Shown piece after piece: positions 1 through 32,000 of a DNA stretch of 32,000 nucleotides. The stretch is from Candidatus Saccharimonadota bacterium (GTDB lineage Bacteria > Patescibacteriota > Gracilibacteria > BD1-5 > UBA2023), in the NCBI GenBank assembly GCA_042852035.1, contig BAAFHK010000001.1, forward strand, positions 510,001 to 542,000, in the 5' to 3' direction. A model generated the notes under the pieces. The model did no database searches. It saw only the letters and a program-made list of their open reading frames with translations, and was not told the DNA's origin. Numbering within the stretch: the stretch's first letter is position 1; the number at the start of each line of letters is the position of its first letter. The translations under genes and the position numbers were made by a program.

Positions 1-483
1 GGATGACTTCGATACTTTCTCTACGAGTACGAACAATATCTTCTCGAATCTTCGAAGAATTCTACTGCAAAAATCACATGGGAGAAGTTTACCAAAGAAC
101 AGGATATGATATCTATAGAGCATATTCTTCCTCAAACACCCGATAAATCTTGTTGGTCACATTTTGTATCACAGTATAGTCCTGAAGAAATGAATTACTT
201 TACGAATACTCTCTGAAATCTTCTCGCTCTCTCACAACCAAAAAACAGTAGTCTCCAAAATGATTGTTATGAAAATAAGCGAGTTGACGGAGAAAAGAAT
301 CGATGATATTTCAATGGATCATATTCGGAATGTAGAGTTGCTGAGACTTATAAGGAATGGACTCCTTATTCTATAAAAGAGCGAGGACTTGAACTCCTCG
401 GATTCATGGAAGAGAGATGGAATATTAATCTCGGGGATGATACTACAAAGATGAAGTTATTGAATCTTGAGTTTTTAGATTAA
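1..483 (+). CDS. C-terminal part of a DUF1524/GmrSD-type His-Me finger nuclease domain protein (5' end outside window)
   Basis: Frame 1 is open from nt 1 to TAA 481-483 if TGA 214-216 and 304-306 are read as Gly. Translation contains ISIEHILPQTP ... NTL(G)NLLALSQPKNSSLQND, the remembered DUF1524 motif pair (EHI.P..... LGNL.L....N). The first TGA sits on the G of LGNL. Confidence 0.7.
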
Positions 484-539
484 AAATTAACGATGCCATA
501 GCTTATGTCACAAATTATTTTCTTTCTATAAATTTTTTC

Positions 540-590
540 TTGCTTTCTTTAATATAAAGAGTAGTATAACCATACCCTATGGTTAGGTAT
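540..590 (+). promoter_or_regulatory. Candidate promoter (TTGCTT-16-TAGTAT) followed by a CsoR-type operator
   Basis: Two overlapping inverted repeats lie just downstream of the -10-like hexamer: AACCATA-ccc-TATGGTT (568-584) and ATACC-N9-GGTAT (572-590). ATACC...GGTAT arms resemble remembered Firmicute CsoR operators. The site is 19 nt upstream of the Cys-rich micro-ORF and about 190 nt upstream of csoR. Confidence 0.5.
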
Positions 591-608
591 ATTTAATAAT
601 AACTATTT

Positions 609-686
609 ATGACTACGAATAAATGCACATGCAATCCATGTACTTGCAAGACTTGTTCTTGCGGTGATGGAACATGTTGCAACTAA
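609..686 (+). CDS. 25-aa cysteine-rich metallothionein-like micro-protein
   Basis: ATG 609 to TAA 684-686 translates to MTTNKCTCNPCTCKTCSCGDGTCCN: 8 Cys in 25 residues, arranged as three CxC pairs spaced by two residues plus a terminal CC. It lies between a CsoR-type operator and csoR. Too short for the 60-aa ORF track. Confidence 0.55.
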   Translation: MTTNKCTCNPCTCKTCSCGDGTCCN

Positions 687-699
687 ATTGCACATAAAA

Positions 700-715
700 T
701 CCCGCGGATGCGGGA
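700..715 (+). terminator. GC-rich hairpin after the micro-ORF (weak terminator or attenuator)
   Basis: TCCCGC-ggat-GCGGGA is a perfect 6-bp GC stem in an AT-rich context, 14 nt after the stop codon. No clean U-tract follows. Confidence 0.3.
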
Positions 716-736
716 GGTACTTTCGCTAAAAAGTAA

Positions 737-748
737 TTTGAATATACT
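737..748 (+). promoter_or_regulatory. -10 region (TTTGAATATACT) for csoR
   Basis: The same TTTGAATAT(A/G)(C/A)T motif heads both copies of the 275-bp element (14281-14292, 16400-16411). It lies 34 nt upstream of the csoR ATG. Confidence 0.4.
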
Positions 749-781
749 GAAATCATAGGGTTTTTCAATATAATTTTCAAT

Positions 782-1054
782 ATGATAATTTCAAAAGATA
801 AAATACAGCTCAATATCAAGAAGGCAATGGGAACACTTGCCAAGGTTCAAAAGATGATAGATGACGATGTGTACTGTGCTGATGTTGCCCACCAGATAAA
901 TGCGTCTATGGGGTTATTGCAAAGTGCAAATCGTGAACTTCTCAAAAATCACCTCTCTTGTTGTGGAACAAAGGCTCTTTCATCTGAATGAAAGGAAAAA
1001 GAAGATTTTATCGAAGAACTGGTTCGGACTTGGGATATTGCTACCAGAAAATAA
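782..1054 (+). CDS. csoR: CsoR-family copper-sensing transcriptional repressor
   Basis: ATG 782 to TAA 1052-1054 with TGA 989-991 read as Gly (90 aa). DUF156-like sequence: ...MIDDDVYCADVAHQINA...LLKNHLSCC.... Spacing Cys32-His57-Cys61 (25 and 4 residues) matches the x-C-H-C Cu(I) fingerprint of M. tuberculosis CsoR (C36/H61/C65). Confidence 0.85.
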
Positions 1055-1096
1055 TTTGCCTTTTATCTCAGTATCGCATATACTCAGATCCATTCT

Positions 1097-1495
1097 ATGG
1101 TATTTCTTTATAAAAAACTCATCAGTATTAGTATACTTCTTGCTGTATTTCTTTTTGGAAATATGGCTATTGTGCATGCTGTATCGGAGCTGTCTCATAC
1201 AAAAACAATCTCCCATACTCATGATGGCATCACAGAGTCCCATACGGTATCTACTACATCAGAAGATAAAGAACCTCCCCATTGTACACAGACGAAGATA
1301 GATACAAACATTATTCAACAAGTCAGAGATAACGCTGATATACCAGATATAGGAAAAACAGTGGTTTACTTGTATATCGGATGAGATATAAAAACGGATT
1401 CGATCACTCAGGATACCTATTTTCAGTACTATCCTTGAAGTGAAAATCATTTTTTCTGACATTTGCTTGTAGGAGAGACTATATTAGTGCTTTAG
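1097..1495 (+). CDS. Membrane-anchored His-rich hypothetical protein
   Basis: ATG 1097 to TAG 1493-1495 with three in-frame TGA (132 aa). N-terminal hydrophobic anchor LISISILLAVFLFGNMAIVHA, then SHTKTISHTHDGITESHTV...PPHC. No family recognised. Confidence 0.5.
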
Positions 1496-1512
1496 AAAGT
1501 ATCTCTTTTTCT

Positions 1513-1531
1513 GTATACCTTTTTGGTATGC
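1513..1531 (+). promoter_or_regulatory. Second ATACC/GGTAT inverted repeat (candidate CsoR operator, alternatively a weak terminator)
   Basis: GTATACC-ttttt-GGTATGC shares the ATACC/GGTAT arms of the 572-590 site with a shorter spacer. It lies 32 nt upstream of the membrane-fusion-protein ATG and 18 nt after the preceding stop. Confidence 0.35.
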
Positions 1532-1562
1532 GGATTTTTTGTATTTTCCTAAATCAATTTTT

Positions 1563-3509
1563 ATGACAACTAAAAGTAATATTTTTTATCTTGCTATAAC
1601 AGGAATCTTTTCATCTATTTTAGCAGGATATATTCTCGTAGGAGCACATGGTGGACATGGGGACGAAGAAGCAGAAAATCTCGGATGAGATTCTTCTGTC
1701 ACACTCTCGACATGAGCTACTTTTACCACACTACAAGTAGCAGATATGAGTAACCTCTCAATACCCACCTATCCATGAACAGTACTATCAGATAACTATG
1801 GGTCGATATTTCCAGAACGCCAGTGAATCATAGGGGAACTTCTCGTAAGTCTCGGAGATACCGTGAAAAAATGACAACGAGTTGCTACCATCAATGCTCC
1901 TACTAATACTCCAGAAATGGTGAGTATGGTAGCATGACAACGAGCTGAAATTGCTATAGCTCAATGAGAGCTTCAGAGTGCGAAAGAAAAACTCATCTAC
2001 ATTAATGATGTTGTTGCGAGTCCAAATAGTTCTTTTCGACAAGCGTATGATGTTCAGAGAAAAGCTCTAGATATTCAGTATGAAGTACAGAAAAAACAAC
2101 TTGATGCAAAAATCGCAAGCCTCAGGGCAAATCTCGAAGCAAGATGAGTAGTCATAGAGAGCAGTAGACAAGCGAGTAGTGCTACCATAGCAGAAAATAC
2201 TCAAAAACAAGAAACTGCTAAAAAATATCTTATCGGAAAAGCAAATGAGGCAATCGCTGAGCTTCTTACCATTTTCTATAACTGAGATCGGAATAATCTT
2301 GGTATTAATACAACTTCATATGTATTTTATTGGTGATATAACTCAAACTGGTGATCACTTGGTGTAAATGATCGACAGAAGATATTGGATATACCTGAAA
2401 GGTTTCATAAAAATATGCAAACCATAATGCCTATGTATCCTCTTTCAACGGAAATATCGACTATAGATCTCAGTAGAACCCTCCGTTCACTCGAATCACT
2501 GATCAATGATGCAAATTCTATTTATGCAATTATTTGACCCGCATCGACTACAAATTATACCGAAAATAAACAAGAACTTTTATCGCTCCTTTCTGGAGAT
2601 AACGGCATTCTTATACTTCAATCCCGACTGATTGAGATAGAAAATGGAACACTCAGTGCTAACGCCACAGCATCATGAACATTATCTCAAGCAAATGCTG
2701 ATCTTATCGGACTCAAACAAGAAATGGCACTTCTTGAATCAGAACGTGATCTTCTAGAAGCAAATAAGAAAAAAGATTATGCAACACTCAGTGGTGAACA
2801 ATCTCTTTCGAGTGTAGATCTCGAAAAATTAAAAATCGAAGCACGCTCAGAGCAAATCGGCTCAGAAAATCGTGTGAGAGCTCTCCAGAATGCCCTTGGA
2901 GCAATACAGAGTACTATGAAAGTAAGTTATGCTGTCGCTCCTTTTGATGGTGTCATTTCTCGAAAAAATGTCAGTATCGGACAAACAGTAGATGTGACGA
3001 CCCCAATTTTTGATATTGCAGGAAAAAGTGAATCTCTTGATCTTTTTGTACGATTTGAAGTTCCTGTTGCTGAATACGCAACCATAAAACAATGACAGTC
3101 TATCCAAGTTAGTCTTCCTTGAATTGAGGCAGAGAGTACTCAGGCTGAAGTTACTCGATTTTCATCATCCGTGAATCAAGATACTCAGACAATTTCAGTA
3201 GAGGCTTCTATCGATACTTCCCATCTTCCTGTCGGAACACAAGTTCGTATAGTAAAGTCTGGACTTACAGGAACTGGATACATAGAAATTCCGAAGACAA
3301 GTATTCTCGAAGAATGAGAAGAATCATATGTCTATAAAGTTCTTCCGAATAATACTTTGAAAAAATGGAAAATCACTTATGAGAATATCGGATGAAAATA
3401 CATCATTACCGAATGACTCAAGGCGGATACTCGTATAGTTACAGATGCTCAAGATGAACGATGGAAAGATAATATGGATGTGGGTGCGATTTTATCCACT
3501 AACCCATAG
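1563..3509 (+). CDS. Efflux RND periplasmic adaptor (HlyD/CusB-type membrane fusion protein), unusually long
   Basis: ATG 1563 to TAG 3507-3509 in frame 0 with many TGA read as Gly (648 aa). N-terminal TM (IFYLAITGIFSSILAGYILVG) followed by HGGHGDEE. Lipoyl/beta-barrel-like segments (GDTVKKGQRVATINAP; VAPFDGVISRKNVSIGQTV). A very long coiled-coil-like middle. Its stop is 5 nt before the RND pump start. Confidence 0.75.
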
Positions 3510-3514
3510 TCAAT

Positions 3515-6500
3515 ATGCTCAATAGTCTTATAAAATTTGCTCTCAATAGAAGACCTCTCGTTCTTTTTCTCTACCTTATTATCAGTATTTTTGGGATCTA
3601 TACACTCTCAAAACTCCCTGTCGATGTACTCCCAGATCTTAATCGTCCTCGTGTCACAGTATTTGCGGAAGCAGAAGGTATGAGTGCTGAAGATGTAGAA
3701 AAGATTGTTACACTTCCTCTAGAACGAACCTTGCGCACTATTGCTTCAGTAGATGCTGTGAGATCCAGTTCGGCTGGATGACTCTCGGTCGTGAATGTAG
3801 AATTCGATTGGTGAAGTAGTGTAAATATCAATCGTCAAAGAGTATATGAAAAAATAGCATCAGTCACTCTCCCTGATGGAGTACATCTCACTGTAGCTCC
3901 AGAATCAGCACTGATGGGAGAAGTTCTTTGGATGGGATTGACTTCGACAGATCCAAAGATAAGTCAATCAGACCTTCGTCTCTATGCTGAAACTGAGCTG
4001 AGACAATCTCTTTCTACTGTATCTGGTATTTCGAATCTTTTGATTATGTGAGGTTCTGCCCCACAGTACACTATCTCTATTGATCCTGCAAAACTTTCCC
4101 AAAAACACCTTACTATCGAAGATTTACAAAAATCACTTTCAGACATTACCAATCCTGGATGAGCTGGTATAGCTATAGATAAAAAATCAGAATACCCGAT
4201 TAAACTTAACCCCATACAAAATACTGAAGAAAAGATTGGATCTATTGCTCTTCCGAATGGCAATATCCTCAAAGATATAGCAAGTATAGAAGTCGGGAAA
4301 AATAGCCAAAGACGATGAGATGCGCTCATCGATGGAAAAGAATGAGTCATAATCCGAGTTTCGAAAGTGCCAAATGCAAATACGGTAGATCTCACAAATA
4401 CACTTCTTGCTAAAATTACTGAGATTCAAAAGACTCTCCCCAAATGAATAGAGCTTAACGATGATATTTTTCGTCAAACATGGTTCATCGAGAAGTGATT
4501 GACAAATGTAGAAGAAGCCCTTAGGGATGCAGCGATTATCGTAGCGATTATCGTAGTACTCTTTCTTCTGAATGCTCGTACTGCATTCATTACAATGATC
4601 TCTCTTCCGATTACACTTCTTTTATCAGCAATAGTGTTCTATATTTTCTGAGTTGGGATCAATATTATGGTACTCGGAGGGCTTACTATTGCTATCGGAG
4701 AACTCGTGGATGATGCTATAGTGGATATGGAAAATATTTTTAGACGGTTACGACTGAATGCACTCCTTCCAAGCGAAGAACGTATTCATCATCTGAAAGT
4801 AATATTTGAAGCGTCGAAAGAAGTACGATGAAGTGTAGTTTACGCTACTATTCTTCAGCTTATAGTATTTATTCCATTTCTTCTTCTTCCATGAATCGAT
4901 GGGAAAATACTTGCCCCTATCGGTATGGCATATATTACTTCGATGATTATGTCACTCCTCGTAGCGGTGACTTTTGTTCCTGTCATATGTAGCTATCTCC
5001 TTCCTACATGGATCGAAAAACGTCATGGGAAAATATCTGAAGATACTTGGTTTACGGAAAAACTCAAACACTGGGCAAAATGACCAATTCTCTGGAGTCT
5101 CAAAAATCCACAGAAAGCCCTCCTGTTTGCTCTTTTATCCATACCACTTACTCTACTTGGATACGTGATGGCAAGTGAAGAATGACTTCCTGCATTTAAC
5201 GAATCAAGTTATACGATTTCCATCACCACAAAACCCTGAAGTTCACTGGAATACACACTCGATATTACAAAAAATTTCTCTCTGGAACTCAGAAAGATCT
5301 CATGAATCGAACGAGCTGGAGCGATTCTCTGACGTGCTGATGCTGATGCTCATGCTCAATGATCGAATAATGCAGAAATCGAAGTGGCACTCGCACCAGA
5401 TGTAACCAATGAAGAAAAAGCGAGAATCTATGATGAAATAAATGGCGTAATCGGGAAGTATAAACAAGTTGCCGTCATTGGTATAGGACAACCTATTACA
5501 CATAGAGTAGAAGAAATTATTTCAGGAATTCGTGCCCCACTCGTTATCAAGGTTTTCGGGGAAGATCTGGATACCTTAGAAACACTCGGAAAGCAGATCG
5601 TAGAAATCACCAATACTGTCGAAGGTACTCTCAATATTTCCCTAGAATCTCAAACAAAAATCCCAAGTATTACCGTCACGCCAAATACCCCATCTCTTGT
5701 CTCACAGAAAGTAAACTACAATGAAGTAAAGGAACTTCTTGATGTGGGAATCGGAGGACAAGAAGTCGCACGCGTGATAGAGTGACAAAATTCCTATCCT
5801 GTTGTTATGCGTTTTCCGATCTCATGGACAAGTACGCCAGAATCCATAAGAAGTATTCCTTTTTGGCTATCTGATGAACGAACATTTTTTATCGGAAATG
5901 TTGCGAATGTAGAACTTGGGAAATCGAGAAACATTATCAATCATGAAAACTCAGCGAGACGTATAGTTATATCATGATATACAAAAGATCGTTCCATAGT
6001 CGATGTAGTCGATGATATAAAGAAAGAAGTGGAAAAACTCGATATACCTTCAGGGTATAGAGTTTCGTATGAGGGACTATATTCTGCTCAAAAAGAATCC
6101 TCAAAACTTCTGATGTTTATCTCTATTGGTGTCCTTCTTGCTCTTTTTGGAATCCTTTATTGGCATTTTGGAAGTATTGTACTCGTGCTTCAGATATTTC
6201 TCGGTATTGTCACGGGGTGGTTCTGAGGAATTCTCTGAGTTTGGCTCACGGGAGGAGTTATATCTACCGCTCATCTTGTAGGATTTATCGCACTCATGGG
6301 TATCGTATCGAGAAATGGTATCATGCTCATTGATCATTATAAGCATCTCTGTCTCGAAGAATGACTTCCTTTTGATAAAAATACTATTCTCAAAGGATCT
6401 CTTGAACGTATCGTCCCTGTTTCTATGACAGCACTTTCTGCTATTCTTGGTCTTCTTCCTCTCGTTCTCTGAGCAGGTGATGCAGGGAAGGAAATGCTAT

Positions 6501-6640
6501 CACCGATAGCAACAGTGATATTTTGGTGATTGTTTGTTTCCACGCTTATTGAACTTGCTCTCAGACCATGAATTTTCTATAGATATTATCGTGAAGGTTT
6601 TCATCCGAAAGCATCAAAAAATACTTATATAGTCGAATAA
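3515..6640 (+). CDS. CusA/CzcA-family heavy-metal efflux RND transporter
   Basis: ATG 3515 to TAA 6638-6640, a single frame-2 reading with TGA = Gly (1041 aa). Typical N-terminus [18 protein letters not shown]...[17 protein letters not shown](G)SS at TGA 3812-3814. (G)LPAFNESS and [10 protein letters not shown](G)SNNAEIEV blocks. C-terminal TM bundle. Confidence 0.9.
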
Positions 6641-6660
6641 TTTATTTTCTCACCTTTTCT

Positions 6661-6674
6661 TTATGGATCCATAA
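6661..6674. promoter_or_regulatory. Perfect 14-bp palindrome TTATGGATCCATAA upstream of the DUF305 gene
   Basis: Read directly from the sequence. It lies 51 nt upstream of ATG 6725. The TATGG/CCATA half-sites also occur in the 568-584 repeat, in the opposite arrangement. Confidence 0.3.
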
Positions 6675-6724
6675 TAATTCTCTTTTCTATTGTTGTTCAT
6701 CTTCTTATTTTTTACCTATTTTTT

Positions 6725-7396
6725 ATGAAAACTTCTATCATCATCGGACTTATCGTCCTCTCATCTCTCGCTCTCGCTAGTTGTAGTGATACCACTCAGA
6801 AGACTCCTATATCTACGAATCCTGCACCAACCTCTTCTGTTACATCGACTTCCACTCCAAAAACTACTTCCGCAACATCGACTAATACATCTATGGCAGG
6901 TATGGATCATTCAAAAATGGATATGGGGACTTCTACAGATAGCGGAAATATGACATCTATGGATCATATGTGAGCTTCTACAGAAGAGGAATTCATCGCT
7001 AATATGATCCCCCATCATCAAGAAGCTGTCGACACTGCGAGTATTATCGTAGCAAAAACTGAAAATGTAGAGCTCAAAAAAATTGCACAAAATATTGTTT
7101 CGGCTCAGAAAACAGAAATAAGTCTTCTGAATTCTTGGATGAAGACATGGTATCCAAATAGTACCCTCAAAATAAATTATATGCCTATGATGCGTGATCT
7201 CTCAAAACTTTCTGATCATGATCTTGATGATGCATTTATGGAAGATATGGTTAAGCATCATGAGTGAGCGGTGCATATGGCAGAAGAAGTTCTTGAAGTA
7301 TCTCAACGACCTGAAATTGTCCAGATGGCAAATGATATTATTCGTACACAAAATGCAGAAATCAAGAAATTTAAGGAACTTCTTGGAAATCATTAA
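6725..7396 (+). CDS. DUF305-family lipoprotein (copper-resistance associated)
   Basis: ATG 6725 to TAA 7394-7396 with TGA 6971-6973 and 7265-7267 as Gly (223 aa). Lipobox LALASC, S/T-rich linker with MDHSKMDMG/MTSMDHM. Two DUF305-like repeats: MIPHHQEAVDTA and MVKHHE(G)AVHMA. Confidence 0.8.
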
Positions 7397-7414
7397 TTTT
7401 TTATCCCTATTTTT

Positions 7415-8089
7415 ATGAATCAAAAAGATTGTTGTCATATCGAAGAGAAGGCATCACTTAAGCCCTTATACCTACTCCTTGTAGGTATTGGATGAGTGAG
7501 TATTGGTCTTACTCTTCTTTTCCCTATAAATACCTTCATGATGTACCTGATGGGTGTATGGTTTCTAGCTTTTGGATTACTAAAGCTTTACGATCTCCGT
7601 GGTTTTGTAGAAGCATTCTGCCAGTATGATTTTATTGCAAGAAAATTAAAGTTATATGGATATATCCTTCCTTTTTTAGAAATAATCCTTGGTCTTATCT
7701 ACATACTCAATACGAGTATGCTCTATATGACAGCGGTAAATGTAGTAGCTCTTATTATTTCTCTACTTGGTATAGTCAGTGCCTATTCGGTTGTGAAATC
7801 AGGAAAACAGATCGCATGTGCATGTATGTGAACAAAGTGGAAACTTCCAATGACAAAAGTTACTGTATTGGAAAATCTTTTTATGGCTTTTATGGTTGTA
7901 TATATGTTTATATATCCTGAATCCATGATGAATATGACTGATATGAATACTGGGAGTCATGTTATGCAGGTAGATGAAAGCACCATTATGTCTTCTGAAA
8001 TGATGACACCCTCATCAAATAATGATGATGTTATGCGTGAACACTGTAAAATGATGCCAGAAATGGTGGGCTGTGAAAAATATAGATAA
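7415..8089 (+). CDS. MauE/DoxX-like integral membrane protein with Cys/Met-rich C-terminal tail
   Basis: ATG 7415 to TAA 8087-8089 (224 aa). N-terminal CCH, four hydrophobic segments. ACACM(G)TKWKLPMT resembles the CxCxG motif of MauE-type proteins. The tail ends ...DVMREHCKMMPEMVGCEKYR. Confidence 0.65.
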
Positions 8090-8108
8090 TTCTTAACCTT
8101 ATCCGTAT

Positions 8109-9854
8109 ATGAAAAAACTCCTTTTAATATTCCTTATTCCTGTATTGCTTTGAAGTTGTAGTATTGTTTGACTAAACAATCCTCAAAATAAGGAACAAAC
8201 ATCCGTACAGGTTATAACATCAACTGAAAATCCACAGGACGCTATGATGCGTGAACACTGTAAAATGATGCCGAGTATGGCAGGTTGTGAAAAATACAAA
8301 AATGATGCCAATACAAATAATTCAACTAAGAAAAGTTTGAATGAACTTATCTTGGTAGATGACGAAACAACCACTGATGTAAAACCAACAGAAGTAGTCA
8401 ATCTGAAAGATGGAGATACTTATGACCTCACTATACAAAAAGTTCGTAAGGTTATAAATGGTAAGACCTTTATTATGCTTTCGTATAATGGAAGTATCCC
8501 TTGACCAACTTTCCGTGCTCCAAAAGGTGCAACAATAAAGTTTAAGGTTCGTAATACTGTAAAGGAACTTGCCACGACTATTCATCCACACGGTGTACGG
8601 CTCAACTATCTCTATGATGGTGTACCAAAAGACCAAGGTGGAGCACAAGACCCAATTAAAGTAGGCGATGTGTACGAACAAATTATTACTTTTCCAGATA
8701 CTGGAGTGATGTGGTATCATCCACACACACGAGATGACTTCGAACAAGAACTTGGTGAATATGGAACATTTCAGATATACGACCCGAATGAAAAACCAAC
8801 AGTAGATAGTCAAAATGTCATTACACTTGATGATGTTCTTATAGAAAATGGAGTTATTCCACCATTTGAACAAGATACCGTAAATTATACCCTGATGGGT
8901 CGCTATGGAAATACAATGTTTGTAAATGGAAATACAGACTTCTCACTCACAATCAAACAAGGGGAAATAAAGAGGCTCTATCTCATCAATACTGCCAATG
9001 CAAGACCATTTGATTTTTCCATTCCTTGAGTGAAGATGAAATTGATCGGTGGTGATATGGGGTATTATGAAAATGAGAAGTTTGTAGACCACCTTATTAT
9101 ATCTCCCGCTGAACGCTACATAGTCGATATTATGGGTGAAAAATCTGGTAATTTTCCAGTGCAAAGTATCGGTGGTGGAAAAACTATTTCACTTGGAACA
9201 TTGACGGTAATGCCAAACACAACTCCCTCAATCTATAAAAAAGATTTCGAAACACTCAAAACTCATGATATTCTCTGAAATCTTAAAAATACACTTTCAT
9301 CCTACCAATCAAAAACACCAGATAAAAGTCTAAAAATCACCATGACCATGGAAGGAATGGATGGTATGGAATGAATGGGAGATATGGGTGGCATGCATCA
9401 TAATATGTGATGAATGGGTATGGGTGGTATGAGTATGGGAGACGAAAGTCCTGATGGTATAGAATGGGAAGATACAATGGCAATGATGAACTCAAATAGT
9501 ACCAATAAGACAACAAAATGGATACTCCGAGATGAACAAACAGGAAAAGAAGGTATGGATATAGATTGGAGTTTCAAAAAGTGAAGTCTTGTGAAAATAC
9601 GCCTTACGAATGATAAAGATGCTATGCACCCAATGCAACATCCATTCCATATGCACGGACAACGGTTTTTGATACTCAATCAAAATGGAACAGTAAATAC
9701 AAACTTTGTATGGAAAGATACAGTTCTCATACCAAAAGACCAATATGTAGATATTCTTGTAGATATGAATAATCCTTGAAACTGGATGGCACACTGTCAT
9801 ATCGTAGAGCACCTCTTCTCTGGTATGATGTTTGGATATAAAGTTATAGAATAA
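8109..9854 (+). CDS. Multicopper oxidase lipoprotein (CopA/CueO-like) with Met/Gly-rich loop
   Basis: ATG 8109 to TAA 9852-9854 in frame 0 (581 aa). Lipobox LL(G)SCS with TGA 8151-8153. Copper ligand motifs HPHGV, WYHPH, HPFHMHG, HCHIVEHLFSGMM. Met-rich insert MTMEGMDGME(G)MGDMGGMHHNM(GG)MGMGGMSMG. Confidence 0.9.
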
Positions 9855-9882
9855 TCTCTCTATGAATTGGAGAGAGTAGAAC

Positions 9883-9912: not shown

Positions 9913-10486
9913 CCGCTCTATACTGATAAAAATTGCTTTTCCATACCCTTCTTCTATAATCTTTTCTCAACCAACACCACAATATAATACCACAGATGAT
10001 TTCAAGACTTCTTTCTTATCTTCTCGTTATTCATGTATTCCTTTTTGGAAGTATTTTTGGTTGTATAGAGGTATTACATACCTATCTTTGAAACAATGCA
10101 ACACCTCCCGTCGATCATTGCTGTACAGATAATCATAATGATAAGATACAATCTTGAACCACTCTTCAATATACACAAGAAGAATCGTATAAATTCATAC
10201 CATCTCTTTTCATAAAAACAGTCTTTGATTGGGATTATTCGGAAAATAGGGAGGTTATAGAAAAAAAGGTTGTAGCCCATATTGATAAACAAAGTCTCTT
10301 TTTTATAGAGACAGTGAGATTGCTACTCTAGGAGTAAGTATATTGATTTTTATATATTCATTTTGGGATTTTTATCATCCCTGTTTTTCAAGATACAATC
10401 TTCTTTAATAGGGAAAATATGAATGAATACCCTGATGATAGACTATAAAATATAACTAACCCTTATTCTTAATACTCATAAAAATT

Positions 10487-11095: not shown

Positions 11096-11138
11096 ATCCA
11101 CGAGAAACCAATTATTATATTTTTTACTATAACTTTTT

Positions 11139-12041
11139 ATGCGACATCCAAATCTGGAAACCGAAGAAGCAACTTCTCAATATCCAAAATCGAACCATCC
11201 AAAAACACTGATTATATCACTTCTTATTGTCTCAATACTCGCAAGTGTTGGGTCATCATATTTCTTTTCAAAACAAGTTTCAAAAGAAGTAATAGAAAGC
11301 TATCTTGCTCTTGAATACAAAAAATCAGGTGGAAAAGAAAATTATGAACTTATTTCTGAAGCACAACGCCTTCAGCTTGAACAACAGATACCACAGATCC
11401 GTGAGTTTTTGAAAAATGGTGCATCTGCTAATCAGCAGGCTGGAGGACAAGAAGCTCCACCAAAAAAACTCTCCAAAGAAGAGCTTGCTTCTATTAAGAA
11501 AGATGCGTACATCGAAGGAAATAAAGAAGCAAAAATCACTCTCATCGAATATAGTGACCTTGAGTGTCCATTCTGTATCCGTCAATTCAAAGAAGGAACT
11601 ATAAAAAAAATTCATGAAAAATATGGAGATACTGTAAATTCTATCTTTAAGAATTTCCGTGGAGTACCACATGAAAATGCTGAGATCGAAGCAGTGGCTA
11701 CACTCTGTGCTGGACAGGTTGGAGGAACTGAAAAATATGCAAGCTATTACCAAGCCATTCTTGGGCGATCGAATGGTGGAAATGGAACTGGATTTAGTAA
11801 AGATGCCCTTGTGCCACTTGCCAAGGAATTTGGACTTGATATGAAAAAATTTCAATCATGTTTCGATGCGAAATCTACCCTTGCTCGATTTGATGCGGAA
11901 ACAACGGAAGGAAAGAAACTCGGCGTATCTGGTACTCCTGGAACAGTGATTATTAATAATGAAACTGGAGAATATGAACTTGTAGCTGGAGCATATCCAG
12001 TATCTGAATTTGAACGAGTTATTACTAAACTCCTGAAATAA
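11139..12041 (+). CDS. DsbA-family thiol:disulfide oxidoreductase, membrane anchored
   Basis: Intact 300-aa ORF under either genetic code. TM anchor, LIEYSDLECPFCIRQF (CPFC active site), C-terminal GVSGTPGTVIIN (cis-Pro loop). Confidence 0.85.
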   Translation: MRHPNLETEEATSQYPKSNHPKTLIISLLIVSILASVGSSYFFSKQVSKEVIESYLALEYKKSGGKENYELISEAQRLQLEQQIPQIREFLKNGASANQQAGGQEAPPKKLSKEELASIKKDAYIEGNKEAKITLIEYSDLECPFCIRQFKEGTIKKIHEKYGDTVNSIFKNFRGVPHENAEIEAVATLCAGQVGGTEKYASYYQAILGRSNGGNGTGFSKDALVPLAKEFGLDMKKFQSCFDAKSTLARFDAETTEGKKLGVSGTPGTVIINNETGEYELVAGAYPVSEFERVITKLLK

Positions 12042-12806: not shown

Positions 12807-12824
12807 TCATAACTTTCTAAAAGT

Positions 12825-14261: not shown

Positions 14262-14538
14262 CGATTTGACAAATAAAATATTTGAATATGATACGCCCAC
14301 TAGGTGTCCCATTTGTCTCATTTTGAGTCCAGTTCCGAGATGACCTAGATGCTAGAAGTCATATTTCTAGTAACCCACTCTGGGTCTCGCCAAGGTTTGG
14401 TGGAGTACCAAGGTGTCCAGCCATAAAAAATCGAGCTCGCAGACCATGTTGCCTGCGTTTCACATAACACTCAGTTTCCGACATAAAACGCGAAGGAACT
14501 CTCCAAATCGGAGAGTTCCTTCCTTTTTTGATATCTTG
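14262..14538 (+). repeat. Copy A of a ~275-bp conserved noncoding element (promoter-to-terminator unit; candidate sRNA)
   Basis: Hand alignment to 16381-16657 gives roughly 80-85% identity with two 1-nt indels. It starts with TTGACA (14266-14271) and TTTGAATATGAT and ends in a strong intrinsic terminator. The segment looks more GC-rich than its surroundings. Substitutions show no 3-nt periodicity. Confidence 0.85.
14492..14529 (+). terminator. Intrinsic terminator closing element copy A
   Basis: GAAGGAACTCTCC-aaatc-GGAGAGTTCCTTC (13-bp perfect stem) followed by CTTTTTT. Confidence 0.8.
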
Positions 14539-16380: not shown

Positions 16381-16657
16381 GATATTAATAACTAAAATAT
16401 TTGAATATACTACGCCCATTAGGTGTCCCCTTTGTCTCATTTTGACTCCAGTTCCGGAATGACCTAGATCCTAGAAGCCATATTTGTCGTCATCCACTCT
16501 GGGTCTCGCCAACGTTTGCTAGAGGACTAAGGTGTTCAGTCATATAAAAACAAGCTCGAGGGGCCATGTTTCCGGCGTTTCACATGATACTCAGTTTCCA
16601 ACAAAAACACGAAGGAATTCTCCGATTTGAAGAGTTTTCTTTCTCTTTTATATCTTC
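16381..16657 (+). repeat. Copy B of the ~275-bp conserved noncoding element
   Basis: Same orientation as copy A. Carries TTTGAATATACT and conserved blocks TACGCCCAyTAGGTGTCCC, CCAGTTCCG, ATGACCTAGAT, CCACTCTGGGTCTCGCCAA, GCGTTTCACAT, ACTCAGTTTCC. The terminal hairpin is weaker (GAAGGAATTCTC...GAAGAGTTTTCTTTC) and is followed by TCTTTT. 7-bp inverted ends: AAGATAT (16379-16385) and ATATCTT (16650-16656). Confidence 0.85.
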
Positions 16658-22321: not shown

Positions 22322-24646
22322 ATGTCAAAACTCAACCCCGCACAAAAAGAAGCCGTAGATACCATATATGGTCCTCTCCTTATAAACGCTGGAGCATGAT
22401 CAGGTAAAACTCACACCATTACTGAAAGAGTGGTATTTATGGTAACCGAGAAAAAAATTGACCCAAGAAGTATTTTTTGTGTTACTTTTACCAACAAGGC
22501 TGCCAAAGAAATGCGAGAGCGAATTGCTCGACGTCTCGGTATCGATCCAGGTTCCATCAATCCCTTCAGAACTCTGTGACTCCCAACGATTGGAACCTTC
22601 CATTCGATTGCTGCATTCTTCCTTCGGATGTTTATCGATGAGATATGATATGGAAAGGATTTTATTATCTATGATACTGACGATTGTCTAAGGACTGTAA
22701 AGGAGATTTTGAAGCGACAAAATATCGATGAAAAAGAGTTTAATCCTCGAGGAGTACTTGGTATGATCTCTCAAGCAAAAGGAAAATGAATGAGTCCGAT
22801 GGAATTTAGCGCTACAGTGGATTCATATTTTTGATCTGTTGTTTTCGAAGTGTATAAGGAATATGCTGGAAAAATGAAGAAAGAAAATGCTCTTGATTTC
22901 GATGATCTTCTTTTGTTCTTTCGACAAATTCTCGATATACCTTCTGTAATTGAGTACTTTCATAATCGGTTTGAGTACTTTATGGTAGATGAATATCAAG
23001 ATACGAATGTACTCCAGTATGAGATAGTGAGACTTCTTGCATCAAAAACCAAAAATCTCTGTGTGGTTTGAGATGATTGGCAGGGAATCTATTCTTGGAG
23101 AGGGGCAGATATCGAAAATATCCTCTCCTTTAAAAAAGATTATCCTGAAGCAAAAGTAATCAATCTTGAAGAAAATTATAGATCCACAAAAAATATTATT
23201 GAGGCTGCAAATCACGTCATCAAGAATAATGCCAATCAAATGAAGAAAACCCTGTTTACTTCAAAATGAGATGGAGAGAAGATACTTCTCCTTGAAGGAA
23301 TGGATGACAAGCATGAGGCAGAGCTCATAGCAACTAAGATTAAAGAGTTTGGATCTCATCATCTCGAGTGAAACAAAGGATCTGAAAGCCTAGGTTCTTC
23401 GCCATCTCAAAATGACGAAACAACGAACGATGTACGATACTCTTCTTTTGCTATCCTTTATCGCACAAACGGGCAATCTCGCCTTATCGAAGAATCACTC
23501 ATCCGAAAAAACATCCCGTATAGAGTTTATGGAGGGGTAAAATTTTATGAAAGAAAGGAGATAAAAGACGTTCTTGCGTATATTCGCATCATTTTTAATC
23601 CCCTTGATAGCGCGAGCCTCAAGCGGATAATCAATGTGCCTTGAAGAAAAATTTGAGAAAAGTCTTTGGAAAATTTCCTTGAGATTATGGATCGTGAACG
23701 TATGAATATTTCTCAAATTGCAGAAGAACCTATGATTGTCGAATCACTTTCTGGTATTGGTGCAAATGGGATTCGATCATTTGTTACGCTCTATAAAACC
23801 CTCAGAGATATCTCAAAATCTGAAAGCGTGGCAGCGCTTATGTCAGCAATTATATCTCGAACAAACTACGAAGCCTATCTCAAGGAAGAATATGGAGAAG
23901 AAGAATATGAAGGAAAAATCGAGAATCTCGAAGAGTTCGTAAATATGGCTTCTCGTTATGATGGTATGACTTATCCGGAAAATATCGCATCATTCCTCGA
24001 AGATATCGCTCTTATTACAGATCAAGATAGGGATACTGAGCAGGGAAATGCCTCCACAGATTCACAAGGACATGTCTCTCTTATGACCATTCATCTCGCA
24101 AAATGATTGGAATTTCCATATGTATTTATTGCCTGAGCGGAAGAAGGAATCTTCCCACACTCAAGAACACTTCTTGATGCTCGTGAGATAGAAGAAGAAA
24201 GAAGACTCATGTATGTTGCAATTACTCGAGCAAAAGAACGGCTTTACATCTCTCGCGCCTTTGAGCGATATACTTTTGGGAATTTTAGCGCGAATCCGAA
24301 GAGTCGTTTTATCGGAGAAATCCCAAGTCAGTACTTAGAACAAAGCGAAGTAAGGAGAGAATGATCCAGCATATTCGGATCTTCAAATCCTCACATCCAG
24401 ACTCTCTCAAGTCTATTCCAGAATAATAACGTAAAATCTTCCTCTTCATCCATGGGGCTTACCTCAAATAAAGCAACTGCAAAAAAGAATAGCGCCTGAG
24501 ATTTTTGTTCTTGAGATCGAATTGAACACGCACAATATGGTATCTGAACTATCGTATGACTCTCTTGAGCTGTGGCTGATATTGCTTTTTCGTGAGTTGG
24601 AGTAAAGAAGATGAATGTGGAAATTGCCCCGATAAAAAAGATATAA
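22322..24646 (+). CDS. pcrA: UvrD/PcrA/Rep-family ATP-dependent DNA helicase
   Basis: ATG 22322 to TAA 24644-24646 in frame 2 (774 aa). Motif I NAGA(G)SGKTH (TGA 22397-22399), [21 protein letters not shown](G)[28 protein letters not shown](G)[21 protein letters not shown]. Confidence 0.92.
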
Positions 24647-28899: not shown

Positions 28900-28972
28900 A
28901 TGTGAGTAGAACGTCAACAAAAAGAAAAAAGAAGACTACGTGCACAAAAGGTGAACAATTTTTAAAAATCTT

Positions 28973-29022
28973 TTGACAATATGTGGTGGAAAAAGTAGAG
29001 TCATAAACACAATATCTAGTAT
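28973..29022 (+). promoter_or_regulatory. nrd promoter (TTGACA-17-TAGAGT) with two NrdR-box-like palindromes
   Basis: Box 2, ACACAATATCTAGTAT (29007-29022), matches 13/16 of the remembered NrdR consensus ACACTATATATAGTGT. Box 1, TGACAATATGTGGTGG (28974-28989), matches about 11/16 and overlaps the -35. The box centres are 33 bp apart. Confidence 0.5.
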
Positions 29023-29060
29023 GTTTATGTGATACTTCATCTCATTTCATTCTGTGAAGG

Positions 29061-29120
29061 TCGACCACTAGTCTACTCATAAAGTAGCCTTTTGCAAAAG
29101 GGAAGTTAGTCGATTTTTTT
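29061..29120 (+). promoter_or_regulatory. Structured 5' leader of nrdA ending in a U-tract (attenuator-like)
   Basis: Outer stem TCGAC (29061-29065) / GTCGA (29109-29113) encloses hairpins CTACT-cataa-AGTAG and CCTTTTGCAAAAGG. TTTTTTT follows at 29114-29120, 45 nt before the ATG. Confidence 0.35.
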
Positions 29121-29165
29121 GTCCTTCTTCGTAATTCATAATTTTTCATATCACTTTTTTCTCCT

Positions 29166-31793
29166 ATGCCCCCCTTCAAAGTCCGCAAACGTAATGATGA
29201 AGTCGTAGATTTCGACCGAACTCGTATCGAAGCTGCTATAGAATCAGCTTGCGTCTCATCAGGTGAACCTGATCGCTCATTTATTCCTGTTGTTACAGAC
29301 TTCATTATCAAAGATATTGATCACGTCTATGGGGAAATCTTCACGAATCGTATCCCATCTGTAGAAGATATCGGTGATATCGTCGAACGAAATCTCATGA
29401 AATTCAATAAGTTCGATGTCGCCAAAGAATATATCATCTATCGTGCAGAGCGACAAGAAGAGCGTGCTGAAGCTCACGAAAAGCTCGTCAAAAAATTTGA
29501 AAAGAATGGGTTTAAAGTTACTAAATCCTCAGGTGGAAAAGAAGATTTTGATTTCGAAAAAATCGAAAAAATGTTTGCTCACGCCGTCAAAGGATATGAA
29601 GATAAGTGTACCTTCGATGAACTTATGCAAGCGTTTAAGAAGAATATCGTCGAAGATATGAAGACTTCCGATATCGCTAAACTCCTCGTGAAGACTTGTA
29701 TCGATCTCGTAACCGTCGAGAATATCGCATGGGAACATATCGCCGGACGATTGGCGCTCTTTGATCTCTACAAAAAAGCAGGAAAAAATCGTAATCTCAC
29801 TCAGAAACAAATCTATACGCCTGATTCGTATGTTCCATTTTTTGAAACCTACGTCAAAGAAAAGCTCTATTTCGAAGACTTCCTCAACTACTACTCGAAA
29901 GAAGACCTCGTAAAAGCAGGGGAATACCTCGCAAAGCATGGAAAGGCTCGTGATATGGAATATGGATACACTACTATCCTCTCCCTCTCGAAGAGATACC
30001 TTGCCAACCCAAATAAAAATGTCCGTGAACTCCCTCAAGAAATGTATATGGGTGTAGCACTGTTTCTCGCAGTTCCAGAAAAAGATGAAGATCGCCTCGC
30101 ATTTGCCTTCAAGATCTACGATCAGTGCTCGACACAAAAAATCTCCCTCCCGACTCCAACCCTCATCAATGCACGTACCAATTTCTACCAGCTCACAAGC
30201 TGTTTCAAGCTCAACGTCAATGATGATCTCCGCGCTATCTATCACTCAATCGAGAATATGGCGCAAATCTCAAAGTACGGAGGAGGTATAGGATCATACT
30301 GGGGACATATCCGCTCTCGTGGATCATCAATCCGTGGTATCGATAATGCCTCAGCATGAGTCCTCCCGTGGCTCAAGGTCGTCAATGATACTGCCACAGC
30401 CGTAAACCAACTTGGAGCTCGTCTCGGTGCTATATCTGTGACACTCGACGTCTGGCATCGTGATATCTATGACTTTCTGGATATGCAGACTGAGACGGGA
30501 GATATCCGCTCGAAGGCATTTGATCTTTTTCCAGCGATTTCTATCCCAGACCTCTTCATGCGTCGTGTGGAAGAAGACGGAGAATGGACTCTCATGGATC
30601 CGCATGAAGTGAATAATGTCTACGGTCGTCGCATCGAAGATACCTTCGGAACGGATTTCGAAATCTTCTATACTGATGCCGAAAAGAATCCAAAACTCAA
30701 ACTCAATAAAGTCGTCAAAGCAAAAGATCTCTTCAAGACCTTCCTAAAGTCTACTGTAGAAACTGGTATGCCGTATGTCTTCTTTCGAGATACGGTCAAC
30801 CGCCTCAATCCGAACAAACATGCAGGAAGTATCTATTCGACTCAGCTCTGTACCGAAATCTGTCAGAATTCATCACCAAGTGAATTTATCGAGGAGAAAA
30901 ATGAAAATGGAGAAGTAACTCTTCGCTACAAGATGGGAGATACAGTTACTTGTAATCTTGCGTCTATTAACGTCGCAAAAGTAAATACCGTGAAAGATAT
31001 GGAAGAGACTGTACCGGTCATGATGCGCCTCCTCGACAATGTGGTATCGATCACAAAATATCCAATCAAAGAAGCAGAACGTACCAGTCTCCGCTATCGA
31101 CCTATCGCTATAGGGTACCTCGGACTCGCTGAGTACTTCGCGACTCACTCGATGGCATATGATTCACCAGAGGCTCGCCAAGTGGCAGATAAAATGTTCG
31201 AGGAATTCGCATGGCACGTCTATCGTACCTCTATCGATCTCGCGAAAGAGCGAGGAAAATACGACCTCTACGAAGGAAGTGAATTCGATAAAGGAATCCT
31301 CCTCGGTCACGATGAAGCATGGTTCACGAGCGAGACGACAATGAAGGATAAGTGGAAAGAAATCTTTAGCGATATGAAGCAGCATGGTGTCCGATTCGGC
31401 TATCACTTCGGTCCAGCTCCAAATACTTCTACCGCAGGTATCGTCGGAACAACCGCCGCCCTCCTCCCGATCTACAAGAAATACTTCGTCGAAACCAATC
31501 TTTCCTCTCCGACTATCCGCATCGCTCCGAAGCTCAATGCAGAAAACTTCTGGTACTATAAGGAGTATGTAAATATGGATATGAATGATGTCATCGATAT
31601 GATGTCTACTATCTATAAGTGGATCGACCAGTCTATCAGTTTTGAATGGATGATTGACCCAGCGAAGGTCTCTCCTCGCGAACTCTTCAGCTACTATATG
31701 AAGGCGTGGAAGCAAGGCGTGAAGACCGTCTACTATGTCCGCTCGCTCTCGAGTGAGGTCAGTAAGGATAATTGTGTGAGTTGTTCAGGATAG
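29166..31793 (+). CDS. nrdA: Class I ribonucleotide reductase alpha subunit with N-terminal ATP-cone
   Basis: ATG 29166 to TAG 31791-31793; the two track ORFs are joined by TGA 30357-30359 (875 aa). ATP-cone VRKRNDEVVDFDRTRI. IDNASA(G)VLPWLKVVND...NQLGARLGA. Active site STQLCTEI and CNLASINV. KTVYYVRS (radical-transfer YY). C-terminal CVSC. Confidence 0.92.
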
Positions 31794-31840
31794 AGAAAAA
31801 AAGAAAATTAAGAGTTATTAGAAGCATCAAGAGAAAACAA

Positions 31841-31880
31841 AAATCCCTAACCTTCTAATGCAAGGTTGGGGATTTATTTA
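31841..31880 (+). terminator. Rho-independent terminator after nrdA
   Basis: ATCCCTAACCTT-ctaatgc-AAGGTTGGGGAT (12-bp stem with one G-U pair) followed by TTATTT. Confidence 0.7.
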
Positions 31881-31890
31881 AAAAAAACTT

Positions 31891-32000
31891 ATGGCTTATA
31901 AAAATTCTACTCAAACAACATTAGACTATATTGAAAAAATTGAAAATCATCTGAAAAGTGAGTCATATAAAAGTCAAATTTGATGACAAGATATTATAAC
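31891..32000 (+). CDS. 5' end of a hypothetical protein (continues beyond window)
   Basis: ATG 31891, MAYKNSTQTTLDYIEKIENHLKSESYKSQI(GG)QDII..., with a tandem TGA-TGA. It does not resemble NrdB. Confidence 0.35.

Follow-up and report, generated by a model that had tools for sequence, protein, structure and literature searches.

The use of UGA as a glycine codon defines the Candidate Division SR1/Absconditabacteria and Gracilibacteria code (NCBI table 25), for which Shulgina & Eddy 2021 (PMC8629427) cite Campbell et al. 2013 and Rinke et al. 2013. The same paper enters Gracilibacteria as UGA Stop-to-Gly, with tRNA-Gly(UCA) and release factor 2 (RF2) serving as checks, and describes a further variant in which CGA and CGG have become Trp in Absconditabacteria, with CGG = Trp inferred for some Gracilibacteria. 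Proteomics of a BD1-5 relative yielded 97 unique peptides for the Gly translation versus 3 for Trp (PMC4032931), and Hanke et al. reported other residues at UGA in rare peptides. Fujii et al. 2024 (PMC11393006) assigned UGA=Gly to the genome HHAS10 with Codetta and reported that the GTDB class Gracilibacteria proper retains UGA as a stop.

The window analyzed here, a 32-kb stretch of low GC content (37.6%), comes from the MAG HHAS10, which represents a tiny uncultured activated-sludge bacterium related to Gracilibacteria, is named 'Candidatus Altimarinota bacterium' at NCBI and is placed by GTDB in class JAEDAM01, formerly within Gracilibacteria/BD1-5. The first-pass annotation had pointed to Gracilibacteria/Absconditabacteria, in agreement with the closest relatives of the ribonucleotide reductase (RNR) and the UvrD helicase, which are Candidatus Gracilibacteria/Altimarinota MAGs. 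Translated with code 25, five window proteins were identical to deposited NCBI proteins (accessions in Table 1) on one 750,307-bp contig; its record already translates TGA as Gly, and its locus tags HHAS10_05090–05280 cover GAB0174630–GAB0174649. We conclude, with a probability of about 0.97, that the window is HHAS10 chromosome written in NCBI table 25: UGA is an ordinary Gly codon, translation stops only at UAA or UAG, and the other testable codons are standard. Reading UGA as Gly here is right but well known, and for this genome it is already published and annotated.

With TGA taken as a stop, 54 ORFs in the window reached 100 aa or more, summing to 8,235 aa, the longest of 477 aa; with TGA taken as sense, the longest ORF grew to 1,045 aa, and making TAA or TAG sense instead produced no comparable lengthening of ORFs in the window. 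Because off-frame TAA and TAG together account for ~2–3% of codons, TAA/TAG-free frames of 300–1,000 codons lie far beyond chance. Across 23 genes (8,819 codons), 156 in-frame TGA codons were counted, and UGA made up about a quarter of the Gly codons in the window. Pfam profiles matched full length across as many as 25 TGAs per gene; the cobW, Pirin, T2SSE and Cu-oxidase domains likewise span TGAs. All twelve coordinates (12/12) for which the first-pass annotation had cited a TGA proved to be TGA in the frame of the named gene. Its description of tightly packed genes ending only in TAA or TAG was equally accurate: the 23 gene ends checked comprised 20 TAA, 3 TAG and 0 TGA, and re-calling with TGA as sense gave 29 genes, namely these 23 plus six further small genes, at 89% coding density in the window.

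Table 1. Features of the window, with in-frame TGA codons and supporting matches.
Feature	Coordinates	Strand	Remarks
GmrSD-type restriction endonuclease, 3' part (GmrSD_C/DUF1524)	1..483	+	3 TGA; cut by window start; PF07510, E = 5e-18
CsoR/RcnR-type metal-sensing repressor, 90 aa	782..1054	+	1 TGA; PF02583, E = 6e-17; also precedes the pump in loci L001 and L003
Hypothetical secreted protein, 132 aa	1097..1495	+	3 TGA; TGA-sense ORF; 132-aa call at equivalent place in L001
HlyD/CusB-type membrane-fusion protein, 648 aa	1563..3509	+	18 TGA; Pfam HlyD_3, HlyD_D23; L001-L003 orthologs 98.5% identical
CusA/CzcA-type heavy-metal RND efflux pump, 1041 aa	3515..6640	+	25 TGA; ACR_tran 2-1018 of 1021, E = 1e-195
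DUF305/CopM-like lipoprotein, 223 aa	6725..7396	+	2 TGA; PF03713, E = 6e-43; CopM 5ffa, E = 1e-24
MauE/DoxX-like membrane protein, 224 aa	7415..8089	+	2 TGA; PF07291, E = 5e-11
Multicopper oxidase (CueO-like), Met/Gly-rich loop, 581 aa	8109..9854	+	10 TGA, tandem at 9408-9413; three Cu-oxidase Pfam domains
Hypothetical ORF, 111 aa, weakly supported gene	9996..10331	+	2 TGA; TGA-sense ORF only; no Pfam match
Rhodanese-domain protein, 202 aa	10487..11095	+	6 TGA; PF00581, E = 9e-14
DsbA-like thioredoxin-fold protein, 300 aa	11139..12041	+	0 TGA; Pfam Thioredoxin_4, DSBA; identical to GAB0174630.1, HHAS10_05090
Second DsbA-like lipoprotein, 223 aa	12135..12806	+	5 TGA; Thioredoxin_4, E = 2e-21
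Hypothetical membrane protein, 117 aa	12825..13178	+	3 TGA; TGA-sense ORF; no Pfam match
CDF (CzcD-type) cation efflux protein, 307 aa	13193..14116	+	2 TGA; Pfam Cation_efflux, ZT_dimer
Non-coding element copy 1	14266..14529		Core about 14290-14424; ends in two-way terminator hairpin, 14492-14522
Lipoprotein, esterase/lipase (BD-FAE) domain, 555 aa	14634..16301	-	9 TGA; PF20434, E = 7e-10
Non-coding element copy 2	16385..16636		Direct repeat of copy 1
Fur-family (Zur-like) regulator, 132 aa	16733..17131	+	4 TGA; PF01475, E = 7e-20
COG0523 zinc metallochaperone GTPase (ZigA), 400 aa	17134..18336	+	11 TGA, at both P-loop glycines and in tandem at residues 245-246; Pfam cobW, CobW_C; identical to GAB0174637.1 with Gly
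Hypothetical secreted Pro/Gln/Lys-rich protein, 282 aa	18514..19362	-	2 TGA; TGA-sense ORF; no Pfam match
Hypothetical protein, 268 aa	19459..20265	-	3 TGA; orthologs in L012, L014, L019, 45-50% identity; start of block syntenic with other Gracilibacteria
Holliday-junction-resolvase-like endonuclease, 134 aa	20207..20611	+	1 TGA; PF10107, E = 5e-30
TIM-barrel protein (AP_endonuc_2-like, weak Pfam match), 250 aa	20726..21478	+	7 TGA; in orthologs Gly 46x, TGA 3x
Conserved hypothetical protein, 211 aa	21506..22141	-	3 TGA; orthologs 84-93% identity, 14 loci
PcrA/UvrD helicase, 774 aa	22322..24646	+	19 TGA; five Pfam domains, full length (UvrD-helicase 1-271 of 271, plus UvrD_C); identical to GAB0174643.1, Gly at 19/19 TGAs
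Hypothetical protein, 338 aa	24693..25709	+	8 TGA; TGA-sense ORF; no Pfam match
PilT twitching-motility ATPase, 366 aa	25716..26816	-	8 TGA; Pfam T2SSE; identical to GAB0174645.1
Pirin-family protein, 306 aa	26917..27837	-	10 TGA; Pfam Pirin, Pirin_C
DUF1294 membrane protein, 87 aa	28177..28440	-	2 TGA; PF06961, E = 2e-16
Cytidylyltransferase-like protein, 151 aa	28444..28899	-	1 TGA, in HxGH motif; PF01467; identical to GAB0174649.1
Ribonucleotide reductase large subunit, ATP-cone domains, 875 aa	29166..31793	+	1 TGA; Ribonuc_red_lgC 2-523 of 523

The residue specified by TGA was assessed with a Codetta-like score built on 245 distantly related standard-code proteins, 97 of them homologous to the RND pump and 148, taken as representatives, to UvrD. 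Over 41 columns of the two proteins, the log-likelihood for TGA was +62.4 for Gly and -4.6 for Trp, while every other informative codon scored as standard, CGA/CGG = Arg included. At the 25 RND TGA sites, the opposite residue was Gly in 54% and Trp in 2%; the pump's own GGN codons, used as a control, faced Gly in 57%. For UvrD, Gly was the commonest residue at 11 TGA columns, reaching 134–147 of 148 representatives at 7 of these, and the P-loop site showed G in 147/148. At ~40% of TGA sites a residue other than Gly, such as A, E, L, N or F, was the commonest among homologs, which is no argument against Gly because the GGN codons of the window behave alike.

Orthologs from 26 Gracilibacteria loci gave a consistent picture: window TGA codons faced TGA 252 times, GGN 302 times and TGG never (0 of 698), and window TGG codons faced Trp 348 times and TGA never. 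In PDB alignments, Gly was found at 4/4 alignable TGAs of ZigA against YjiA (1nij), P-loop included, at the single RNR site in 3/3 alignments and at the cytidylyltransferase HxGH site in all alignments shown (HLGH, HYGH, HIGH, HRGH). PilT aligned with 2ewv (E = 8e-75) had Gly at 3/8 TGAs, VGEMRD included, the others being P, P, S, T and T, with no W; Pirin aligned with 7te5 had Gly at 6/10 and Trp at none; and the four alignable TGAs of the multicopper oxidase faced Gly in 4f7k, one facing Ala in 3zx1. Two homologs from Acinetobacter carried Gly (SLGNLL, GVGYYNG) opposite the GmrSD TGAs at 214–216 and at residue 102. The first-pass annotation had proposed tallying the residues opposite TGA and had preferred Gly to Trp, that is, code 25 to code 4; this preference is supported. 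Its wording that TGA lands on "invariant glycines" was overstated at RND residue 100, where the column varies (G 24, N 23, D 15, S 11 and E 9 of 97), at HHE-x-A of DUF305, where CopM (PDB 5ffa) has Met, and at the lipobox. Taken together, three independent tests (distant homologs, ortholog codons, and structure/Acinetobacter alignments) agree in supporting TGA as Gly, not Trp.

A Trp reading under code 4, the code of Mycoplasmatales and of certain insect endosymbionts, would account for the JGI gene call of a near-identical RND pump (P0001), which shows W at 25/25 TGA sites, and for the frequency of W among 23 close database homologs of the pump. These W residues arise because the caller used code 4, and not from biology. 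Trp is scarce at the TGA columns of distant homologs and scores negatively there, TGA and TGG never face each other among orthologs, and glycines of Walker A, HxGH and VGEMRD fall on TGA sites; this exceedingly improbable reading was rejected as refuted by the alignments. Under the standard code 11, pseudogenes or sequencing or assembly errors would have created the TGA stops. Nearly all genes are indeed fragmented when read so, and the first-pass warning about code-11 annotation was justified by the PilT cluster, which holds public fragments of 36–217 aa. However, the interruptions are always TGA and never TAA/TAG, there are no frameshifts, conserved Gly columns are where the interruptions fall, independent assemblies share TGA positions (the 252 TGA–TGA pairs), TGA and GGN exchange as synonymous codons do, and domains are whole from end to end, leaving this account a practically nil chance.

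It is also conceivable, if very improbable, that TGA is mostly Gly and in places a terminator, selenocysteine or a readthrough site. TGA lies 12–17 codons ahead of the TAA/TAG stop in the second DsbA-like protein (DsbA2), the conserved hypothetical protein hyp21506, ZigA and UvrD, so that short C-terminal extensions are possible for some genes, and the rare peptides of Hanke et al. also speak for such mixed use. Where homologs reach the C-terminus, however, the alignment runs on beyond the last TGA: of 148 homologs, 129, 135 and 87 have Gly opposite the UvrD tudor-domain TGAs at residues 731, 742 and 749, respectively, the UvrD Pfam match extends to residue 773 of 774, and the ACR_tran match continues to residue 1022, past the TGA at 1019. 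The absence of Cys-rich TGA columns in RND and UvrD argues against selenocysteine.

For UGA as an ordinary Gly codon, published work on the lineage suggests that a dedicated tRNA-Gly with anticodon UCA would perform the decoding and that, upon loss of RF2, UGA would no longer be recognised as a stop. Scans of the window and 34 related loci found no tRNA genes and neither prfB nor prfA.

Two further observations concern individual loci. The use of TGA was skewed in two genes, none of the 25 Gly codons of the DsbA-like gene at 11139..12041 (p = 9e-4) and just 1 of 44 in RNR (p = 8e-5) being TGA. Apart from the recoding, the window contains two copies of an unannotated, conserved non-coding element of ~135 nt, arranged as direct repeats with 85% identity. 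Its core is 99% identical in locus L012 and was found too in L019 and L033–L035; an Rfam search with the element returned no match.

Compared with table 25, the window has the same UGA Gly codon, the same UAA and UAG stops and standard remaining tested codons, and belongs to a low-GC Patescibacteria/CPR lineage with Gracilibacteria MAGs nearest; nothing differed among the features testable in 32 kb. Like the Absconditabacteria variant, to whose lineage it is related, it has UGA=Gly as its background, but CGA is common in the window (111 per 10,000 codons) and scores Arg, and CGG (18 per 10,000) stands opposite Arg or Lys in 5/5 testable columns, R occupying three at 97/97, 145/148 and 147/148; no Arg-to-Trp change was found in the testable window codons (RND and UvrD homolog columns). 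Table 4, known from Mycoplasma/Spiroplasma and some endosymbionts, has in common with the window a sense UGA and a small AT-rich host-dependent bacterium, and code-4 gene callers obtain the right ORF boundaries. The amino acid at UGA is what differs, Gly here and not Trp, and code-4 calling of the window would introduce Trp erroneously at about 171 sites.

Reading of TGA as a sense codon was assessed across the 32,000 bases of the window (GC 37.6%, no N). With TGA set as a stop, 54 open reading frames (ORFs) of at least 100 aa were obtained, summing to 8,235 aa with a longest ORF of 477 aa; with TGA set as sense, ORFs of 1,045, 883, 793 and 673 aa appeared. Setting TAA or TAG to sense instead produced no comparable ORF lengthening across the window. 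The claim of the first-pass annotation that genes here are interrupted solely by TGA under the standard code was thus borne out, and all 12 coordinates that it had cited proved to be TGA in the frame of the named gene. Window proteins were searched against Pfam with X placed at each TGA. The ACR_tran profile was covered at 2–1018 of 1021 by the RND pump, spanning 25 TGAs, UvrD-helicase at 1–271 of 271 by the PcrA/UvrD helicase (UvrD_C and a tudor domain were also matched), and Ribonuc_red_lgC at 2–523 of 523 by the ribonucleotide reductase large subunit (RNR). Other end-to-end matches included cobW and CobW_C, Pirin and Pirin_C, T2SSE, three Cu-oxidase domains, Cation_efflux and DUF305.

Across 23 genes (8,819 codons), 156 in-frame TGAs were counted, which amounts to 25.6% of the Gly-reading codons and ranks second, behind GGA only. 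TAA closes 20 of these genes, TAG three and TGA none, in agreement with the earlier statement that TAA and TAG alone serve as stops. Addition of six small genes (CsoR-like, Fur/Zur, DUF1294 and three hypotheticals) brought the total to 29 at 89% coding density, with many intergenic gaps of 2–20 nt. One divergent pair, called from the first ATG, overlaps by 59 nt at the 5' ends, and one of its start codons probably sits further downstream.

To distinguish glycine from tryptophan, the RND pump was compared with 97 aligned homologs that share at most 43% identity with it and come from Verrucomicrobiota, Proteobacteria, Bacteroidota and other groups. Opposite its 25 TGAs the homologs carry Gly in 54% and Trp in 2% of cases; in the control, opposite the pump's own GGN codons, the same homologs carry Gly in 57%. 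For UvrD, the hits of a word-index search all belonged to the Gracilibacteria lineage and included several code-4 calls, which made them unfit for a Gly/Trp tally; 148 representatives from 50% clustering, none above 47% identity, were used instead. Glycine leads in 11 of the 19 UvrD TGA columns, and in seven of these 11 it is present in 134–147 of the 148 sequences. When both proteins were scored with our own Codetta-like log-likelihood over 41 well-occupied TGA columns, glycine reached +62.4 and the runner-up, tryptophan, −4.6.

Solved structures and other standard-code proteins gave the same picture. In the COG0523 GTPase ZigA, each of the four TGAs that can be aligned with E. coli YjiA faces Gly, both P-loop glycines included, and the same holds for the four alignable TGAs of the multicopper oxidase against laccase 4f7k. 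Gly faces six of ten TGAs in the Pirin family protein 7te5, the single RNR TGA in three RNR structures, and the HxGH TGA of the cytidylyltransferase in every alignment shown. In Aquifex PilT it faces three TGAs, that of VGEMRD among them, the remaining five facing P, P, S, T and T. Since no PDB relative of GmrSD_C was found by sequence, two plasmid-borne Acinetobacter GmrSD homologs were used, and these have Gly at the LGNL TGA and at one further site. Trp stands opposite TGA in none of these structure or Acinetobacter alignments. The TGA of the UvrD Walker A motif GA-x-SGKT faces G in 147 of 148 representatives. The description of the TGA sites as invariant glycines is overstated for some of those cited: the column of RND residue 100 (FDW-x) is variable (G 24, N 23, D 15, S 11, E 9), and the DUF305 HHE-x-A position is Met in CopM. 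In the multicopper oxidase, the Met/Gly loop and lipobox sites lie beyond the reach of homology comparison; Gly agrees with the GM repeats of the loop, and lipoboxes permit Gly (PROSITE pattern). These four sites leave the code-25 verdict unchanged.

At the DNA level, 114 ortholog pairs drawn from 26 Gracilibacteria loci were compared codon by codon. Window TGA faces TGA 252 times, GGN 302 times and TGG never; window TGG faces Trp 348 times and TGA never; and window GGN faces TGA 187 times. Because TGA exchanges with GGN and pairs with TGG in none of 698 ortholog codon pairs, it acts as a synonymous partner of GGN. Taken together, distant homologs, ortholog codon pairs and standard-code proteins support the assignment of TGA to Gly, not Trp.

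The rival reading as code 4, in which UGA encodes Trp, has one apparent support: the JGI call of a near-identical pump (P0001) carries Trp at 25/25 of the RND TGA sites. A protein with Trp at every such site must have been called with code 4, and this support is therefore an artefact. The reading is refuted by the scarcity of Trp opposite TGA in distant homologs, by the missing TGA–TGG exchange, by the log-likelihood scores and by the standard-code alignments, in which Gly often and Trp never faces TGA. An explanation by pseudogenes or sequencing errors is refuted too, as TGA alone interrupts the genes, at conserved Gly columns, and identical TGA positions return in independent assemblies. A dual use of TGA as stop and sense codon, or its decoding as selenocysteine, is unlikely, given that the UvrD and RND alignments extend past the final TGA as far as the true C-terminus and that Cys-rich TGA columns are absent.

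The proposed membership in Gracilibacteria/Absconditabacteria agrees with the database relatives. The closest RNR relatives are from Candidatus Gracilibacteria MAGs at 71–90% aa identity, followed by Firmicutes at 36–37%, and UvrD is up to 79% identical to proteins of such MAGs. With Gly at 19/19 TGAs, the window UvrD is identical to GAB0174643.1, "MAG: DNA helicase PcrA [Candidatus Altimarinota bacterium]", on a 750,307-bp contig, and the code-25 versions of ZigA (GAB0174637.1), PilT (GAB0174645.1), the cytidylyltransferase (GAB0174649.1) and a DsbA-like protein (GAB0174630.1) are identical to records from the same contig. The locus tags run from HHAS10_05090 to HHAS10_05280, which are exact matches to HHAS10, and Altimarinota has taxid 363464, the taxid listed for Gracilibacteria in PMC8629427. 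HHAS10 is a 1.3-Mb MAG in 3 contigs from municipal activated sludge (PMC9530719). It was located among Zoogloea cells by FISH and placed in GTDB class JAEDAM01; for HHAS10 and every other JAEDAM01 MAG, Codetta assigned UGA to glycine, while the GTDB class Gracilibacteria retains UGA as stop (PMC11393006). Proteomics of a BD1-5 relative yielded 97 peptides unique to Gly translation, compared with 3 for Trp (PMC4032931). The recoding is thus correct and not new: it is already known for the lineage and for HHAS10 itself (PMC11393006), and the deposited annotation already uses UGA = Gly.

The warning that any code-11 annotation of this contig would be badly wrong does not touch that deposited record, which is correct. 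The harm done by code-11 calling is visible elsewhere: the public PilT cluster P0392–P0402 (JGI, ENA, Logan) has fragments of 36–217 aa, consistent with code-11 truncation. Code-11 callers shred such genes and code-4 callers insert wrong tryptophans, and the miscalled entries contaminate protein databases and skew naive residue tallies towards Trp; this effect is genuine, though it was understood before. Use of TGA is uneven among the window genes. Against 26% overall, it provides 1 of 44 Gly codons in RNR (p = 8e-5) and 0 of 25 in a DsbA-like gene (p = 9e-4). GC3 of RNR is 0.47, compared with about 0.29 elsewhere. Either selection against UGA-Gly where expression is high or a separate history of these two genes may explain their avoidance of TGA.

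The left part of the window carries metal-resistance genes. Its copper/heavy-metal efflux module shares 98.4% nucleotide identity with three contigs of other metagenomes (L001–L003). On L001 the flanks of the module differ on both sides, with restriction-modification genes upstream and CopA/HMA genes downstream, and the oxidase is located elsewhere at 90% identity. From these sequence comparisons, the module appears to be shuffled or mobile within code-25 bacteria. The RND pump and the membrane-fusion protein (MFP) would form part of a heavy-metal exporter of the tripartite type, here in a Patescibacteria cell envelope; Pfam identified no outer-membrane factor gene beside the pair in the window. 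The left 19 kb also holds GmrSD, two DsbA-like genes, a CDF gene, an esterase gene and a Zur-like regulator followed by ZigA, a pair for zinc limitation in an episymbiont with a genome of 1.3 Mb. ZigA residues 245–246 are a tandem TGA-TGA. Synteny with related Gracilibacteria loci is confined to the segment from a hypothetical gene to RNR, and because the left 19 kb lacks a counterpart in those loci, it is probably a variable island.

Coordinates of features in the window and of matching sequences at related loci
Feature	Coordinates	Strand	Remarks
Segment without synteny	1–19400
Metal-efflux module	526–7395		6.9 kb; CsoR, hypothetical, MFP, RND, DUF305
MFP gene	1563–3509		HlyD/CusB-type
RND pump gene	3515–6640		CusA/CzcA-type
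DsbA-like gene	11139–12041		no TGA codon for Gly
Conserved element, first copy	14266–14529		direct repeat, ~260 nt; copies 85% identical, either side of esterase gene
Core of conserved element	about 14290–14424		~135 nt
Two-way terminator	14492–14522		from scan
Esterase gene	14634–16301	−
Conserved element, second copy	16385–16636		direct repeat, ~260 nt
Zur-like regulator gene	16733–17131		Fur family
ZigA gene	17134–18336		begins after 2 nt
Syntenic segment	19459–31793		hypothetical gene to RNR
Divergent gene	19459–20265	−
Divergent gene	20207–20611	+
Overlap of divergent genes	20207–20265		59 nt
UvrD gene	22322–24646
RNR gene	29166–31793
Module in other metagenomes	L001:7013–13881; L002:1–6407; L003:1–6396
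P0001 (JGI pump call)	L001:10001–13126
Core at Gracilibacteria loci	L012:518–662; L019:1216–1360
Core on metagenome contigs	L033:about 4205–4345; L035:about 4151–4291
Core on metagenome contig	L034:about 1419–1559	−

Beside the esterase gene lie two copies of a conserved non-coding element, whose core recurs at two Gracilibacteria loci (L012 and L019) and on three metagenome contigs. The core is 99% identical to the L012 copy, which adjoins an ortholog of the gene at 19459 and whose neighbouring proteins are only 45–93% identical, and 80% identical to the L019 copy. In alignments read by eye, a promoter-like TTGACA..TATGAT box stands ahead of the core; the promoter/terminator scan did not call this box a promoter. 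Downstream of the core are locus-specific terminators, each a hairpin with a T-run, and by eye the hairpins of L012 and L019 differ by compensatory changes. A small protein gene was rejected: in our own translation the minus-strand ORF from ATGGCTGG hits TAG in the L019 copy, and by eye the window copies are less similar as protein than as DNA. Rfam gave no match at gathering thresholds across the window, and at E <= 10 in 14000–17200 just a chance DnaX match. RNAalifold on 7 sequences predicted 39 pairs, of which a single one is compensatory; covariation is weak (term +1.67), and this model does not yet support a structured RNA. We consider it possible, at clearly less than even odds, that the element is a new JAEDAM01/Gracilibacteria-specific small RNA family; another possibility is that it marks a recombination hot spot at the metal-resistance island edge. 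The element is unannotated and is the main candidate for novelty in the window, the recoding holding none.

For the other codons, the standard amino acid scored best in 59 of the 60 further sense codons present (Codetta-like score), the exception being GGC, with 2 columns only and hence uninformative. CGA and CGG are read as Trp in Absconditabacteria, and CGG as Trp in some Gracilibacteria (Shulgina and Eddy, PMC8629427). Such a reassignment was rejected for the window. CGA, with 98 codons, is frequent there, CGG occurs 16 times, and both score as Arg; each of the five CGG columns open to testing shows Arg or Lys, and in three of these R accounts for 97/97, 145/148 and 147/148 sequences. What the analysis adds is a careful confirmation of the recoding and the exclusion of the relatives' CGA/CGG reassignment, with no new biology.

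As to mechanism, UGA would be decoded by a tRNA-Gly(UCA) bearing glycine identity elements, with RF2 presumably lost, by analogy with the literature (PMC8629427), in which the tRNA-Gly with anticodon UCA is recognized by G1:C72, C2:G71, G3:C70 and U73. ARAGORN detected no tRNA gene in the window, nor in any of 34 related loci (including L001–L026, L029 and L031–L035), and no prfB is present in this 32-kb window, a small part of the 1.3-Mb MAG. The window itself is in plain code 25: UGA is an in-frame sense codon for glycine, UAA and UAG are the sole stops, the remaining testable codons are read as usual, and the lineage is that in which this code is found. In code 4, UGA aligns with conserved Trp and exchanges with UGG, and here it does neither. 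The window also differs from the Absconditabacteria variant, in which CGA and CGG have passed to Trp, by keeping both as Arg.
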